Source: Fistulifera solaris (Eukaryota). From it: a stretch of 64,000 nucleotides of DNA. Made by a program: the position numbers and the translations under genes. Shown in pieces: positions 43,778 to 51,773 of the stretch. The stretch covers positions 1,612,001 to 1,676,000 of the forward strand of contig AP026124.1 of the NCBI GenBank assembly GCA_030295235.1, given 5' to 3'. How positions within the stretch are numbered: position 1 is the first letter of the stretch; each line of letters starts with the position of its first letter. A model generated the notes under the pieces. It saw nothing but the letters and a program-made list of their open reading frames with translations. It was not told the DNA's origin and made no database searches.

Positions 43778-44512
43778 TTAGGCAGAGAACGCTAGGAAAT
43801 CGGAAAAGGCTTTCTCTAACTTGGCAAGCTTGCCCTCCATGATCTCGACACGACGAGGACTTCTCGGGATTCCATCCTTCTGAGTATTGGCCTGTTCCAA
43901 CTCGGTAATATCCTGCATAATCACTCGAATCAGACGATCCGTTCCACGTTGCGTATCCTCTTCGAAGGCAGTGTTCACCGTGTTAAGTGTATCACGAAGA
44001 TCAGCGAAATCCAAGTCCTTGATTATGGTCTTTCGGACATTGACCTGCGAATCAGCTTTGAGTGCGGCTTGCATGTCTTGGACAGCCGATCGGTAACCCT
44101 TTACTTTTTTCAGGGCCGACTGGACCGCATCCGACTTTAGGATATCTGCGTCAATTTCGGCTGTTTTGGGGTCCAATACTCCGGGGCTACTTCCTTTTCC
44201 AAACTCACCATATTGAGCGGCAAACGCGTCCGATGGGCCCCCGAAAGCAATACCTCCTGTGACGAAGATGGCAGCTGCTTGAGACAAGAATTCGGATCGC
44301 GATGGTTGCTTTGCAAAGAGCTGCGACGGAGCTGGTGGTGAATTTGGAATTAAGGAAGAGAGTCTAATATGAGAGTTGTTGACATTCAACATCAACGTTG
44401 CTTGAATTGTTTGTCTTTCCACTTACCGACGTCGTTCACTTTTTTTGTGGGGGGCAAAGGCCGATGCTGGTTCCGAAACAAGGAGGGCAAGGCAAAGAGT
44501 AGTAAACTTCAT
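43778..44512 (-). CDS. Plastid protein, probably thylakoid-lumen, helical, function unassigned; intron about 44333-44427
   Basis: Exon 1 MKFTTLCLALLVSEPASAFAP (ASAFAP motif), then SRSEFL...hydrophobic...AFA lumen-type signal and a helical mature domain (FEEDTQRGTDRLIR). Confidence 0.75.
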
Positions 44513-45202: not shown

Positions 45203-48200
45203 ATGTCAAAGCCACGGCCTATTCCTCTTACACGTCCCTTGAGGTCGACACCGGATGAAGCGGAGCCATCCTTTTCGTTCGAAGAAGAGTCCTATTTATC
45301 CAACCGAGCCGTCGACTACGAAGACGATTTTCATCGTCGTCTGACTACTTCGGGCACTCGTCGCGAAGAAAGTGGTGGGAGCAGCTTTTGGAGAGCGTCG
45401 AGTGTGAATAATGTTGCCGCTACTCCTTCTTTCAATAGTGTTCATCTTCGGGGGAAAAGCGACATGAATGTGAAAGAACGCAAACCAAACGTGATACCGG
45501 CCCCAGCAACGCCCCAACCGGTTGCGAGAATGTCGAGTGCCGAAAGTCTAACTTCAAGTAGTAATGTACGTAAATCAATTAAGTCGGTGTTGGTTCTGTG
45601 GATGGCGCTCATTTGACTATTCTTTCTTGCCAATTTCTTTCTCTTTGCAGTGGCCGGATCGACGAGATTCAAGTTTGTCCGCAAATTCATCTACCTCTCA
45701 CAAGCACAAGAAAGATGTCACACGACAAAGAGCTGCGGATCGACGTTTGAAATTGGATGCTCAGGGATCAACGCTAGACGCGGGACACATCGTCGACAAT
45801 GACGCCAGCTTCTCGTTTCAACTTCCGAACTTTGCGCAAATGGTCCATGCAACGAGTCTGGATCGGTCATCGAGTGATCAATCGACTGGGTCGCTGCTTT
45901 ATGGAAAATCTCCAAGTGGCTCTCTTATTGGAAAGTCTTCGTCGCTCATATTTCCAACTGGTCTCAATACGAATGGCGACAACGACAACGAAGCAGCAAA
46001 GGCAAAAAGACGCAGAATTAATTTGGCACTCGATCAATGTGAGGCTGTACGATTTCCATTCAAGAAGAAACTGATCTTGACGAATCTAGATCTCTCGGCT
46101 GCTGACATACCGTTGAAGGACTTGTGCGGAACATCGTTGGGCAATACATTGTATAAGTTATCGCTATCGGGAAATAGGCTCGGAACGGTCCCCGCGCGCT
46201 TGGTACAAAATCTTCCTGTTTTGAAGCATCTTGATCTTTTCGCAATGCGAGTTGAGTCAGCTGCCGGAAAAATGGAATCTCCCTAAGCTGTCGCAACTCA
46301 ATTTGAGCCACAACGGTTTCACTGAGTTTCCCGATGAGGTACGTAGTTGATGAAGTCAAACGTTGTCGGTTGTATTTGGACACAATCTCAATAATCCGCA
46401 TTATTTGTAACAGATGATGCTGGCTGGGCTTCCCGAGCTGCAGGAGCTGAATATGTACGCTAACAAAGTTGCGGAAATTATCATACCTGCAAATCCGAAA
46501 TTACTGTCCAAGCTAGAAAAGCTTGACCTTGGATACAACGATCTTGTAAGCATACCACCAGAGCTTGACCAGCTGAAATCATTGAAAGTCCTTCGCGTCA
46601 TGAACAACTTTTTAGCCAAAGTTCCAATGCGAGTTTGTGAAATGGACTTGAAAAGCATTGATGTTTCTAGTAATCCTATTACAGAACCGCCTGCTGAAAC
46701 ATGCGAACGCGGTATCTGCTCAATGAGACGATATTGGCATTGTATCCGCATGGAAGAACAATCAAAGCAAAAGGCCGTGGAAGAGGCATCTAAGAAGTTA
46801 CAAAGACAATCGAAGAAGCGGGAAACCAAGAAGAAGTACGGCGGGCTTGGTTTAATGTTTCAGGGAAAATCGAAAGCAAAGGTTCCGGAGAGCGATTCTT
46901 CTGTGCATTCGCATACTTCGCCGTCCGTTATCAAACGAAAGCAAATAGAATCTTCTGTGTCCTTTCGATTGGAGGACGAGTTTCAGTCTAAGTCTATGTT
47001 GGGGATGGGTAGTGACGAAAACATTGAAGGCGCAGATAACGATACCTCATCTGAGAGGGCCACAATCTGGTCATCTGATGTTGGTAAAGAGGAGCCTGAA
47101 GAACACGATCGCATTACTGTCAACGACACGCTGAAGGTTATCTTTGTTGGTAAGTAATGAGACTGTGCGATGATTCCTTTTTCGCGTTTTCTCTGCTAAT
47201 CATATGGTTACGATTTTAGGCATGGCCATGGCAGGCAAAACATCGATGATAAAGCGCTTGATTGAGGGGACAGATGCCATTATTCCTACACGGGACGAAC
47301 GCACAATTGGGGTCGATATTTATCAGTGGAATCCAAAGGATGATGCTCGTTTTGAGCACATTGATTCTCGCATCGAATTTCAAGATCAAGAGTTATCCCA
47401 AACATGTGGTGATATTGATGTGAAATTTAGTGTTTGGGATTTCGCAGGTATGTAAAACCATCCGAAAGTTGAATACAATCATTACTTACTTAGGCTGCGT
47501 CGCTGACGGACTTCACTTAAACAAACGTTCACAGGTCAGCACGTATACCATGCAACTCACGAGCTTTTCTTCTCATCAAGAGCTCTATACGTTCTTGTGT
47601 GGGATATGGGTGTGGGCAATCCGGCTACACAGAAAAGCCAGAGAGCTGCCAACGACAGTGGTGCCTTTTCATTGTACGACTCTGACGAAGAGGACGACGA
47701 AGACGATCTCAGAGCAGAAGAAGAAGCTCGTGGTGCTGATAGAGCTTTGGAGCACGATATCGACGAAAAGGTTCAATTTTGGATCGACTCTATACAATCA
47801 TCGGCTCCTGGAGCAGCTATTCTTCCTGTGGCTTCATATGCTGATTATTTTGGAAATGAGTTAGAACACGAGGCGAAGCGTCGTTGTAATATCTTAAAAC
47901 AGCGCCTATTAAAGCACGAAGAGAGAAGAATTAAAGGTCTGAAGGAGCGCTACAAAGATTACATCGACCAGAACCGTGCAGATGATCCGGCTGCGATTCG
48001 CTTGCGCAAGCTACTTTGCCCTTTATCAGGCCGAAACTTATTTTTGGTGACAACGATGACAACAGTGTTGTTCGCGTAAGCGGGACGAAATATACTGGAT
48101 TTGATGTGTTGACTGAGAGAATTATCAGCATTGCAACAGGGCGCTACAAAGTCCAAAAGTTTCCTATTTTTCACGGTCATGTCGGTGCCAGAATTCCTCG

Positions 48201-50646
48201 GATGCGCTTGGAAGTTCGAGAAGAAGTACGAAAAATGCGTGAAAAGTTCAAAGTTGTAGAATGGGGCCATTTCGTCAACACCCTCAAGGACCGCGGTTTG
48301 ACGAATATTGAAGACATAAGTGATGCCTTGCACTTTTTGACGAATACGGGTGAGCTCTCTTACTTTGGCTCTGTGATGACAACTAAAGCATTACCGTGCA
48401 GTACTGGGACAAGTCCACAACGCGATGAAGTTGATCGAAGTGATCAGGACGATGACAATTACGATGAGGATGCTTTACTGTCAATGGACGATACGAGTAT
48501 CACCGCTCCGATTACAGAGGACGGTTCTCTGACCACGATAGAAGATTACATGTCAAATGGTCTATCGCAGTTCGTCTTCTTGAATCCTAGATGGCTTGTT
48601 GCTGCTGTCGCTTGCATTCTTCGTCATGATCTTGATCGTGAAATCAAAGAAACACGACGCCAATTGATGTCAAAAGAGGAAGGTGGGTGGTTAAAGAACC
48701 CAAACTTCTATGAAGCACATCTGAATTGCCCCGTCATTACCGATGAGGACGCTTGTATGTTGTGGAAGGCGAAGCGAATAACCAAATTAGCTGCAAAGAA
48801 AGCAGAAGAATATTCCCATGACATGACAGTCACCCCATTTGAATTTCTCCAGCTTCTTCTGATCCGTTTCGGTGTATTTGTGCCCATCGACTTGACGATT
48901 GACAAGGCTTTGTTGGGCGGCAAGGAGTACTCTAGATGCTTTGATACACTATGTTCAGTTGATCGTGTCCTCGATACGACCCCTTTGGAAATTACAACGA
49001 CGACAGACCATGGCGATAGCCCAAAATCAAAATTCTTCTTCCTGCCGAGTCTACTCGGACCGTGCGAACCAGCAGATGCATGGACGTACAAGACAACCGA
49101 CTCGTGGAAGACCACTTTATGTCATTCTGTTCTTTTCCCCGATGGAATCCCTCCTGGTCTCATGGAACGACTTACTGCTAATGTTCTCAGCTCTATTTAT
49201 GCCGCCACAAGAAATACTGATTCAAGCTCAAAGGCAACGCTGACACAGCAAGGCGTGGCAACGTGCGAAGGACAAATGTCCGTGAAAGAGATTTTGTGCT
49301 GGCGCACGGCTTTCTACATTAAGCTCGGAACACTTATCACAACAAGTGACGGAGCGAAAACAGAAAGTGTTGTAGAAATCTTTACTCATCTTGCTGACAG
49401 GGATTCCCATCTCTGCGTCGGAGCGGATGACATGGCCGTCGGAATGCGTCGTCTAATAACAAGTGGAAGAGGTCAAGTTGGAGACGGTGGTCGAAAGATC
49501 TGGAAGGGAGGTTATTTGCTTGTTTGTAAATGCATTCAGCGGGTCATGGAAGCATATGGCGGTCTAGAATTTGAAAAACAAGGATTCTGTCCAGAATGTT
49601 TGGCGAAAAAGTCTATTGGAGAGGCTAGCTCGTGGGATCATACTGCAATAAGAGCTGCGGTACGTGATTCCGAGTCGACGCTTCGATGTCATCATGGCCA
49701 TCGCGTCGACACACGACTTGTTGCAGGACCTGTTGATTCTTTTCTAAAAACGGATCAGGACCTAATGGTTAAGACGGTCGATGCCGTCGATACAGTTGTC
49801 CCAGTGAAAGAAATATTAACAGCTGTTGTGGTAGTAGGTCTATGGGATGGGAAAACTCGAAAGGTTGTCAGAGTTGGGTCAGGATTCATTGTTGACAAAA
49901 AGCGAGGTTTGATTGTTACCGCTAGTCACACGCTAATAAACATTTGGGGTGATAAGAATTACCCATACGGCGAAAACTATTACGGTCTACCACAAGGTAA
50001 AGTCGTGATCGGTGTCATCCCAGACAAGGAGTCAGAGGGATGGAACGGAAAGGATCTCGCAGTTTTTCGCTACTTTGCCAAAATTGTGGCGAAAGACCCT
50101 CGTTTGGATCACGGTGAATGTCATTTGGATGCTTGTGTTCTTCGCATAACCACCCGCTTGGAGAATGATGTCGACGGCAATGGAGATGGATGTGGTGACC
50201 AACCCGAGATTCTTCTTTTGAATAACGACAAGGCGATGAAGAAGGAGCAGCTTCGATCTCTCAAAGTTACCGAAAAGTGCGAGATAGAAGAGCAAGTTCG
50301 AATCGTGGGGTATAATCAAGGAGGCAATGGTCTTTTGGGACCAGGAGAGAGTTTGAATAGGTGTGTCGACTTTGCTCGGGGTTATATATGCATGAAGTTT
50401 ACACACGACGATCTAGAGTCGGGAACAGTTAGTAATAGCGGGCGTCGAGACCGTTTCAAACCTAAAGAAGAAGTTGTAGTGATTTGCCCAACGATTGGAG
50501 GGCACAGTGGAGGCCCATGTGTGAACCAACAAGGTGAGGTTATTGGAATTCTAAGTAGAGCAGACCCAGCTGAAAGCCAGCGATGCTACATTTCTCCAGC
50601 GCATGAATGGAAGCACCTGGTAAAAGAAGCCAAAAACAAGATGTAA
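45203..50646 (+). CDS. ROCO protein: disordered N-terminus, LRRs, Roc GTPase, COR, Cys/His motif, C-terminal trypsin/HtrA-like serine protease
   Basis: LRRs (L.LSGNRLGTVP, L.LSHN.FTEFP, LDLGYNDLVSIP, IDVSSNPITEPP). Roc: KVIFVG|MAMAGKTS, RTIGVDI, VWDFAG|QHVYHATHELFFS. COR: AL.FL...GEL.YF, VFLNPRWL, FLPSLL, PPGLMERL, CWR. Protease: GSGF, TASH, LDAC, GGHSGGP. Introns about 45566-45650, 46339-46413, 47150-47219, 47448-47534; frameshifts about 46238 and 48018. Confidence 0.9.
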
Positions 50647-50806
50647 ATCAAGCCTACTTTAGATCATTACTTTTGTTCTAAGTCATTCCGTTGTGGGTCG
50701 TCACCCTCTCCTAGACGTTAGCTCGACACCAAAAAACAAAAATTAAGAGCCTCGTCTCCGTACATTTATACTCCGGTACGCCCTTTCTTGAAATGGCCAT
50801 TGACGA

Positions 50807-51773
50807 CTACTTGTCGTCAGTGTTGGGAAGCCAATTTCCAAACATACTCTCAAAGTCTGATTGTGCCTTGTCGGCTGCAGTATCAAAAAAACCTTTGTCG
50901 CTATTCCAATCGTATCCCGGAATAAATCGATTGGTGGTCCGCGGCGTTTTAGCATAATTCCTCGCCTTTCCATCACCCCATGGCTCGGGCGACACCTCCG
51001 AAAACAAGTCAAGCTTTGAATTCTGAAATTGGTACCGTTCCAGCAGTTCCTCGACTTCTGCTTGATTAGATCCTTCAACTCGCGCCACACGATTTCCTTG
51101 GTAGAACATATCAAATGTCGGCCACACATTGACTGCAGCCTGACCGAGAAGAATACTGGCATTTTCGTACTCCGCGAAGCATCTCAAAAACAGTGTCGCC
51201 GGATTGGCTCTAGCCAGACGCTCATACTCTGCTTCAGTCGCCTTACAATCGCTATTTACGGCGCTCGTAAACTTCACAACGGTTACAATACCATCAGGTC
51301 GCTCTGGAAGGGGCTGGGCTGCTAGTTTAACAATCTGACGAATGGAAATACTTAGTTCGTGACGGCAAGTAGTCGATGATTGATAAGAGACAAATTGTTC
51401 GTACCTCTTCCAGCTGCTCATAGGTACTACCGTGCCGAAAAGCCGACCTTGTGAGAATGGATGATCTATCTAATGATGTCCCCCAGAGAAGCATACTCAC
51501 TTGAATTCTTTCACCATGTATGAACCCGCACTCTCCCCATAATAATCCCCTCGAGCATCACCGATCCACCGTCTGCTTTCTACTCTGAAAGGTCGAAATT
51601 GCGTTTGTGGGCTAAACTCGATAATATTACACGTCACGTTAGAATGAGGCAACAAAAAGGATATCTGATATCGTGTTACTAATCGTGCAGACTTACGGAA
51701 CCGCGAAGCATTCGACAAGGGTCAAAGGAGCAAGCAAAACAATAACGGTGAACGTGATACGTCGACATCCCAT
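50807..51773 (-). CDS. Thioredoxin-fold protein lacking the canonical CxxC, plastid-targeted, multi-exon
   Basis: Leader ...VEC-FAVP; IVTVVKFTS..NSDCK..E.EYERLA, V.VWPTFDMFYQGNRVARVEG. GT-AG introns between 51330 and 51700. Confidence 0.65.

Follow-up and report, generated by a model that had tools for sequence, protein, structure and literature searches.

A ROCO protein of the diatom Fistulifera solaris with an HtrA/Deg-like serine protease domain behind its COR domain

Introduction

Research on ROCO proteins has centred on kinase-coupled members (LRRK2, LRRK1, DAPK1 and the Dictyostelium Rocos), and the way in which the Roc-COR unit signals to its output domain is still debated. The Roco protein of Chlorobium tepidum is described as a monomer with GTP and as a dimer in the nucleotide-free state, dimerisation occurring via the C-terminal half of COR (PMC6337361), and the N-terminal repeats of LRRK2 are described as inhibitory (PMC8201809). 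Here we report on a gene located on the forward strand of a 64,000-nucleotide stretch of the Fistulifera solaris genome (GenBank assembly GCA_030295235.1, contig AP026124.1, positions 1,612,001 to 1,676,000), called the window throughout, whose product combines leucine-rich repeats (LRRs), a Roc GTPase and a COR domain with a C-terminal serine protease domain.

The closest described proteins come from brown algae, in which three ROCOs with a C-terminal peptidase domain (IPR009003) were reported as 'group 3' in Frontiers in Plant Science in 2024 (PMC11378527). According to that paper, group 3 nests within a SAR ROCO clade, some members of which carry the same peptidase domain, and diatoms and other unicellular SAR species have at most four ROCOs per species. 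The architecture has therefore already been catalogued, in two passages that hold no analysis of protease type, catalytic triad, fold or function. Diatom ROCOs appear only in passing in the relevant part of PMC3341825, and protease, peptidase, diatom and algae are all words that do not occur in the ROCO review consulted (PMC6337361). Trypsin-like effectors and rare Roc-COR modules both occur in bacterial conflict systems, and the passages of PMC7159879 that treat them describe no fusion of the two. The original prediction for this locus, made from the sequence alone, held that the architecture is not known to have been characterised functionally. This stands insofar as no functional study of a ROCO-protease was found by full-text searches of an open-access library, but the architecture itself is not new to print, being mentioned in the two passages of PMC11378527. 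The ROCO-protease is thus a catalogued but functionally unstudied ROCO variant, mentioned once in print. What is added here is that an HtrA-type protease lies behind a complete COR domain with a CCCH motif, and that the gene is intact and expressed and belongs to a family whose two old clades are both conserved among diatoms.

Results

The protease domain resembles HtrA/Deg enzymes

The gene occupies positions 45203-50646 (+) and consists of five exons encoding about 1708 amino acids, as determined from stop-to-stop frames and reading of the sequence. The following elements were recognised in its product.

46071..46698, + strand: LRR region of about eight repeats, with intron 2 within it (Pfam matches, and repeats counted by eye in the translations)
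47131..48102, + strand: Roc GTPase, with introns 3 and 4 within it and the second apparent frameshift behind 48021 (Pfam Roc)
48196..49740, + strand: COR domain with its COR-A and COR-B parts, spanning residues 59-573 when translation begins at 48022 (fold match)
49588..49701, + strand: CxxC...Cx3H motif (C523, C526, C556, H560) at the C-terminal end of COR-B (conserved columns)
49786..50643, + strand: HtrA/Deg-like S1 serine protease domain (Trypsin_2, fold and profile matches)

The view that one spliced gene encodes LRRs, Roc, COR and a chymotrypsin-fold protease was borne out by the Pfam matches, by an intact and conserved catalytic triad, and by contigs from public runs (see below). As anticipated, LRR, Roc and Trypsin_2 were found above their Pfam cut-offs; COR-A fell short of its own by a tenth of a bit.

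The Pfam family Trypsin_2 matched the C-terminal domain with 54.8 bits (cut-off 27.6, E 2.2e-14). Codons for the triad were read exactly where they had been predicted, namely His (cac, 49927-49929) in TASH, Asp (gat, 50128-50130) in LDAC and Ser (agt, 50506-50508) in GHSGG, at spacings of 67 residues (His-Asp) and 126 residues (Asp-Ser). His is kept in 44 of 45 aligned relatives, Asp in 45 of 45 and Ser in 44 of 45, and the triad is intact in the window protein.

Fold comparisons were carried out with a model of the 874 residues translated from position 48022 (pLDDT 80.3, pTM 0.72), in which the C-terminal domain comprises residues 581-874. The structural alignment program VIA-align matched its protease fold to DegS with Z 22.4 (root-mean-square deviation, rmsd, 4.2; 193 residues aligned) and to plant Deg1 with Z 22.3 (rmsd 3.5; 201 aligned), and ranked HtrA/Deg proteases ahead of V8-type and trypsin-type enzymes. 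Foldseek matched the protease to mycobacterial Rv3671c and to HtrA-family chains (DegP, DegQ, DegS, Deg2 and HtrA1) at E values from 4.5e-11 to 1e-9. When the whole 874-residue model was used, the fold searches returned protease matches only, the COR domain being matched via a separate model. Among PDB sequences, the profile of the family alignment found HtrA1 with E 1.5e-11, and the protease taken as a single sequence gave weak HtrA matches only (E 0.003). The His box and the Ser box can be aligned to their HtrA1 counterparts. A protein atlas, used for leads only, gave as its best match, at 0.89, a cluster with Trypsin_2 in 100% and Roc in 26% of its members; the remaining matches, at 0.76 or below, were bacterial S1 peptidases.

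No PDZ domain was matched by Pfam in the pieces of the window or in 10 homologues. Since the protease alignments reach the last residue of the 874-residue model, there is no room for a further C-terminal domain. Judged from the model and the profile matches, the protease is HtrA/Deg-like (S1C), devoid of a PDZ domain, and not trypsin proper. Its earlier designation as trypsin-like is accordingly right as to the chymotrypsin fold and the triad, but too broad as to the family.

Complex prediction with three copies of the protease domain gave a score of 0.82, versus 0.02 for the best control. Between runs, 64% or more of the contacts were shared, with a partner pLDDT of 72 or higher. When the mark for oligomers was calibrated, 21 of 30 proteins solved as homo-pairs and 0 of 23 solved as single chains passed it, and in eukaryotes 17 of 29 versus 0 of 30. 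The copies are predicted to be arranged head-to-tail, with contacts that include residues 823-826, beside the catalytic Ser 829.

A complete COR domain precedes the protease

For the COR domain, residues 1-587 of the translation from 48022 were modelled separately from a 47-sequence alignment (model ma11e4fe5f5c5; pLDDT 78.4, pTM 0.75). In a VIA-align comparison against 48,161 chains, residues 59-573 of the model matched the COR domain of C. tepidum Roco (3dpt_B) with Z 19.5 and rmsd 3.6 over 291 of 299 residues. LRRK1 (Z 14.1), LRRK2 (Z 13.9) and M. barkeri Roco2 (Z 10.4) were also matched, and the next families after ROCO, the SelB winged helices, remained below Z 9. Foldseek gave 25 matches at E values of 0.001 or less, with LRRK1 as the best (1.8e-9), and all rows listed were LRRK1, LRRK2 or C. 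tepidum Roco. The Pfam score for COR-A was 35.2 bits, barely below the cut-off of 35.3 (E 1.4e-8). The COR domain named in the original prediction is thus confirmed, by the fold of the model, as complete and directly C-terminal of Roc.

The CxxC...Cx3H motif lies about 30 residues ahead of the protease. In relatives covering each column, its three Cys residues are kept in 45 of 45, 45 of 45 and 46 of 46 sequences and its His in 44 of 45. We read it as a probable structural zinc site.

The Roc GTPase and the LRR region are conserved

The Roc family (PF08477) scored 30.4 bits (cut-off 27) with the exon 4 piece alone, from which the domain continues into exon 5, and 51.6-61.1 bits in all five full-length LRR-type homologues scanned. 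In an alignment of the window protein with 35 LRR-type homologues (36 sequences, fast MAFFT setting), three motifs are conserved: the P-loop GMAMAGKTS (G1, GxxxxGKT/S), a Thr of switch I within RT.GVDIY, and WDFAGQ (DxxGQ) of switch II. An RVSG motif is found at the expected G5 position. At the G4 position, S-[YF]-x-D (SYAD in the window) is present instead of N/TKxD, with the Asp alone conserved. Motifs past an acidic insertion were assigned by eye. The insertion itself, a low-complexity Asp/Glu run at about 47660-47740 between Roc strands 4 and 5, is present across orthologues and poorly conserved in sequence. Judging from these motifs, the Roc GTPase looks functional but not textbook. To call it complete, as had been done, is correct for the P-loop, switch I and DFAGQ, but slightly too strong in view of the replaced NKxD.

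In the LRR region, the exon 3 piece matched LRR_4 with 40.2 bits and LRR_8 with 28.6 bits, the exon 2 piece gave weaker LRR matches, and LRR_1 scored 28.4 bits. When the window protein was compared with 35 LRR-type orthologues, the mean identity was 61% in the LRRs (range 40-72%), 68% in Roc, 59% in COR and 68% in the protease; it was 39% in the N-terminus and 34% in the linker between LRRs and Roc. By this measure, conservation of the LRR region is at the level of COR and near that of the two enzymatic domains.

The gene is intact and transcribed

The exon and intron structure of the gene is as follows.

45203..45565, + strand: exon 1, start codon (ATG 45203) and hydrophilic, poorly conserved N-terminal region
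45566-45650, + strand: intron 1, GT..AG, 85 bases
45651..46338, + strand: exon 2, remaining N-terminal region and LRRs 1-4, with the first apparent frameshift (LRR_8 and LRR_4 matches; tblastn)
46339-46413, + strand: intron 2, GT..AG, 75 bases
46414..47149, + strand: exon 3, LRRs 5-8, lysine-rich poorly conserved linker and first Roc strand (splice joints)
47150-47219, + strand: intron 3, GT..AG, 70 bases
47220..47447, + strand: exon 4, Roc G1 to G3 (both flanking joints spliced in runs X1, X3 and X4)
47448-47534, + strand: intron 4, GT..AG, 87 bases
47535..50646, + strand: exon 5, remaining Roc, COR, CCCH motif, protease and stop (open frame 47986-50646)

The ATG at 45203 stands four codons past an in-frame stop, and the tblastn alignment of a Mayamaea homologue (P0002) begins at 45206. 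The stop codon is TAA at 50644-50646. Contigs from four public runs (X1 to X4, from one study and one organism) were aligned to the window; these runs may include the source data of the assembly itself. All four introns were spliced out in contigs of three of the four runs (X1, X3 and X4), in which the joint of exons 1 and 2 was found at 45565>45651, and further joints at 46336>46412 (cut +2) and 47148>47219 (cut +1). In X2, all four splice joints were missing and the contigs listed read through introns 2 and 3; this run behaves like DNA. Exon 5 was covered in 29 of 30 depth bins in X1 and in 30 of 30 in X2.

The tblastn alignment with P0002 also revealed two frame changes free of introns, at 46231-46238 and 48019-48022. 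Both breaks fall in T-runs, near 46237 and 48021. At 46237, contigs of all four runs omit one base, the T-run being one base too long in the window, and behind 48021 contigs of all four runs carry one extra T. The contigs therefore restore a single frame, which means that the organism has an open frame and that the window is wrong by one base in each T-run, or else represents a broken allele absent from these runs. The exon-joined translation, with X at both breaks, has 1708 residues and no other stop. We conclude that the gene is intact and transcribed, and that both breaks stem either from homopolymer errors in the window or from a rare allele. The frameshifts noticed earlier are thus gone in four of four runs and splicing is seen in three, whereas the single transcript then supposed is covered only piecewise. 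COR and the protease share an uninterrupted frame of 886 codons (47986-50646), so their fusion is independent of any splice.

The predicted lack of a signal peptide agrees with a simple hydropathy scan, in which the N-terminus of the exon-joined translation was not hydrophobic. Two hydrophobic windows of 19 residues (in the joined protein, around residue 1109 and residue 1423) were considered as membrane spans and rejected, as they lie inside the confidently folded cores of COR and the protease. The scan suggests a cytosolic protein.

Separate contigs of 95-99% likeness carried clusters of single-base differences at 46023-46178, 47160-47282, 47889-47932, 48249-48291 and 49917-49968, among them 10 differences in X2 that fall within intron 3 or beside it; the likely source of these clusters is another haplotype of the gene or a closely related homeologue. 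One X2 contig omits 132 bases just 3' of the stop codon (50678-50811, with TA..AC ends), which is probably not an intron but an indel that distinguishes haplotypes 3' of the gene.

The family spans diatoms

A search for homologues of 1552-4430 amino acids gave 75 relatives. Trypsin_2 was present in all 75, and LRR, Roc and Trypsin_2 were all listed in 36 of them. The named sources are diatoms throughout (Mayamaea, Epithemia, Nitzschia, Cylindrotheca, Thalassiosira, Pseudo-nitzschia, Odontella, Seminavis and Ditylum). Three transcriptome open reading frames labelled 'type:complete' (P0018, P0021 and P0029; 1704-1912 amino acids) contain all four domain types. Among 1.84 billion cluster representatives, 461 clusters (50% identity) matched at E values of 0.001 or less and 227 at 1e-30 or less; the closest relatives among the matches listed are 86-89% identical to the window protein. 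In the alignment-based search, the best 120 of 224 matches were 55-89% identical to it, and those with names were diatoms. No brown-alga sequence was among the homologue matches obtained.

A FastTree phylogeny from Roc to the end of the protein (890 columns, 76 sequences, quick alignment, midpoint-rooted) separated two clades. One is an LRR clade of centric and pennate diatoms, which holds the window gene and the centric Thalassiosira and Odontella, and the other has no Pfam-detectable N-terminal domains. Nitzschia inconspicua, Nitzschia sp. Nitz4, Cylindrotheca, Odontella (two sources) and a Bacillariaceae metagenome-assembled genome (MAG) occur once in each clade. Because the same taxa are represented in both, the duplication is old. 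Within the LRR clade, no named species or MAG was found more than once among the 75 long proteins compared. By these sequence comparisons, the Roc-COR-protease family spans diatoms in at least two old clades, one of them without LRRs, and its conservation across relatives suggests selection on both enzymes and an obligate fusion.

The non-LRR clade (P0036-P0072) has N-terminal parts of 580-830 residues, in which no Pfam family was found in any of the three members scanned (P0037, P0047 and P0057). P0074 of Ditylum brightwellii (1821 amino acids) combines an N-terminal protein kinase (251 bits) with a weak COR-B and Trypsin_2, and has no Pfam Roc match; it may be a variant that unites kinase and protease.

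The gene is flanked by two frames on the reverse strand, at 43778-44422 and 50807-51469, with sub-cut-off matches to PsbQ (20.9 versus 26.9 bits) and Thioredoxin (23.0 versus 23.5 bits), respectively.

Discussion

The original reading of the protein as sensor, switch and effector is reasonable. We are inclined to regard it as a ROCO switch with proteolysis as its output, in which the nucleotide state of Roc-COR gates an oligomerising protease, although we hold this view with considerable reserve. In such a protein, the ROCO switch would act through proteolysis rather than phosphorylation. The nucleotide state of Roc would alter the conformation and the oligomeric state mediated by COR, as in characterised ROCO proteins, and the state of COR would in turn decide whether the C-terminal protease domains form an active HtrA-type head-to-tail oligomer. 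By analogy, the C. tepidum Roco cycle and the inhibitory repeats of LRRK2 suggest that the nucleotide state controls either the assembly or the shielding of the protease. The conserved LRRs might bind a conserved cellular partner, or might fold back as an intramolecular inhibitor like the N-terminal repeats of LRRK2; recognition of variable pathogen molecules by them would be unlikely. As for the biological process, stress-triggered or death-related regulated proteolysis may be guessed.

Several points weigh against a nucleotide-gated, oligomerising protease. GTP binding, GTP hydrolysis, proteolysis and their coupling are inferred for every family member. The G4 guanine-specificity motif is non-canonical, retaining only the Asp of NKxD, which makes the preference for and affinity to nucleotides uncertain. 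ROCO proteins form dimers whereas HtrA proteases form trimers, and how one protein would accommodate both symmetries is not apparent. Even the best run of the complex prediction had only two of the three possible interfaces confident, short of a closed trimer, and the calibration was based on two copies whereas the prediction used three. As HtrA trimers have already been solved, the predicted oligomer may reflect likeness only. On the side of the gene, the contigs measure 200-600 bases and cover it piecewise, with no single full-length transcript among them.

A more far-reaching form of the proposal is that diatoms possess a cytosolic protease family whose members are under the direct control of a Ras-like GTPase in the same chain. 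GTP-dependent changes in the oligomeric state of Roc-COR would assemble or release an HtrA-type ring, and a putative zinc site of COR-B would provide the coupling. We put this forward as a tentative possibility that we rather doubt. If it were true, the ROCO-protease would be the first GTPase-gated protease. It would then also be a candidate for the role of executioner or checkpoint when diatoms respond to stress or when blooms end by cell death, distinct from metacaspases, and a natural test of how Roc-COR signals to an output domain, an open question in LRRK2 biology.

Among other explanations, Roc-COR and the LRRs could serve only as a targeting scaffold for a constitutive quality-control protease of HtrA-like type, which they would bring to a membrane, an organelle surface or the cytoskeleton, with catalysis independent of nucleotide. 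HtrA-family proteases are classical protein quality-control enzymes, and the HtrA-family fold matches of the window protein include, by entry title, DegP cages with bound clients. Recruitment to membranes by partner GTPases is moreover described for LRRK2 and other ROCO proteins (PMC6337361). We nevertheless consider this explanation unlikely. Strict conservation of the GTPase motifs would hardly be expected if the switch merely carried a protease that is always active in the cytosol, and the short, conserved connection between COR and protease, with the CCCH motif about 30 residues ahead of the latter, points to direct coupling.

The protein could also be an intracellular pathogen receptor, similar to NLRs. 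Its LRRs would sense molecules of viruses, oomycetes or bacteria, upon which Roc-COR would be turned on and defence or cell death would be carried out by the protease. Its layout of LRRs, NTPase and effector resembles that of immune receptors, LRR-ROCOs of brown algae have been proposed to be such receptors (PMC3341825, PMC11378527), and trypsin-like and caspase-like peptidases are described as effectors of prokaryotic NTP-dependent conflict systems (PMC7159879). Several findings speak against it. The LRRs, at a mean identity of 61%, are as conserved as COR at 59% and not far below Roc and the protease at 68%. The LRR clade comprises centric as well as pennate diatoms, with no named species or MAG occurring twice among the 75 long proteins compared. 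Only about eight repeats are present, spread over two exons and not arranged as one repeat per exon. The switch is Ras-like and not a STAND NTPase: no NB-ARC or NACHT match was obtained with Pfam in the window pieces or the homologues scanned, which gave Roc and Ras-type families instead. Conserved LRRs, the lack of repeated species in the LRR clade and a Ras-like switch together argue against a diversifying pathogen receptor. Pathogen sensing, which had been suggested for the locus, thus finds no support here, and we regard it as improbable, more so than the scaffold.

According to a third explanation, the main substrate of the protease would be its own chain, cleaved in cis or inside an oligomer, with the result that either the LRR-Roc-COR part or the protease itself is released or activated. 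Autoprocessing had been raised before, and long low-confidence linkers at residues 122-172, 294-331 and 574-588 of the 874-residue model offer possible cleavage sites. There are, however, no fragments in evidence, and the many short relatives of about 700-750 amino acids, for which Trypsin_2 is the sole annotation, may result from incomplete gene prediction on short contigs and not from processing. We therefore consider self-processing as the main function very unlikely.

That the gene is a decaying pseudogene, dead in the organism by two real frameshifts, has in its favour the frame breaks of the window itself, but is rejected as scarcely credible by the run contigs, which in four of four runs, albeit of one study, lack both breaks and in three show correct splicing of all four introns, and also by the absence of any other stop in about 1708 codons and by the T-run location of both breaks, typical of base-calling error.

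In diatoms, proteolysis that governs stress and cell death is otherwise mostly attributed to metacaspases. To diatom biology, the family described here adds an expressed, presumably regulated intracellular protease conserved in all diatoms sampled and in at least two ancient paralogue clades. For research on ROCO proteins, a protease-driving family would be an independent system with cleavage as an easy read-out, in which oligomerisation could be set against intramolecular shielding. There is also a practical correction to be made: this gene is intact, and homopolymer errors of the assembly disrupt its reading frame. Other genes of the assembly may carry the same type of artefactual frameshift.

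Comparison with known systems

LRRK2, LRRK1 and the Dictyostelium Roco kinases share with the diatom protein the LRR-Roc-COR core and an enzymatic output directly after COR, and the COR folds of LRRK1 and LRRK2 match the diatom COR with Z 13.9-14.1. In contrast to these kinases, the output of the diatom protein is a serine protease, WD40 repeats are absent, no ankyrin or armadillo repeats are detected by Pfam, the G4 motif is non-canonical, and COR-B bears a CCCH motif. C. tepidum Roco has the same order of LRR, Roc and COR and provides the best structural match to the diatom COR (3dpt_B); unlike the diatom protein it carries no enzymatic output domain, and the identity in the structural alignment with the diatom COR is about 12%.

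On the protease side, the HtrA/Deg enzymes (DegS, DegP/DegQ, plant Deg1/2/5 and human HtrA1-3) match the diatom domain in fold with Z 20-22. Its His and Ser boxes align with those of HtrA1, and its predicted head-to-tail homo-oligomer touches the active-site loop. The diatom protease differs from them in having no PDZ domain and, by the simple hydropathy scan, no signal or transit peptide, in its much longer His-Asp and Asp-Ser spacings (67 and 126 residues), in a sequence identity of only 15-25%, and in being fused behind a GTPase switch.

The group 3 and SAR ROCOs reported with the brown-alga proteins are alike in having ROC-COR followed by a C-terminal PA-clan peptidase (IPR009003), a likeness that concerns architecture alone (PMC11378527). 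The proposal of immune receptors in brown algae rests on expanded and shuffled LRR repertoires, and the LRR clade of the diatom ROCO-proteases, in which no named species or MAG recurs among the 75 long proteins compared, is the opposite of that.

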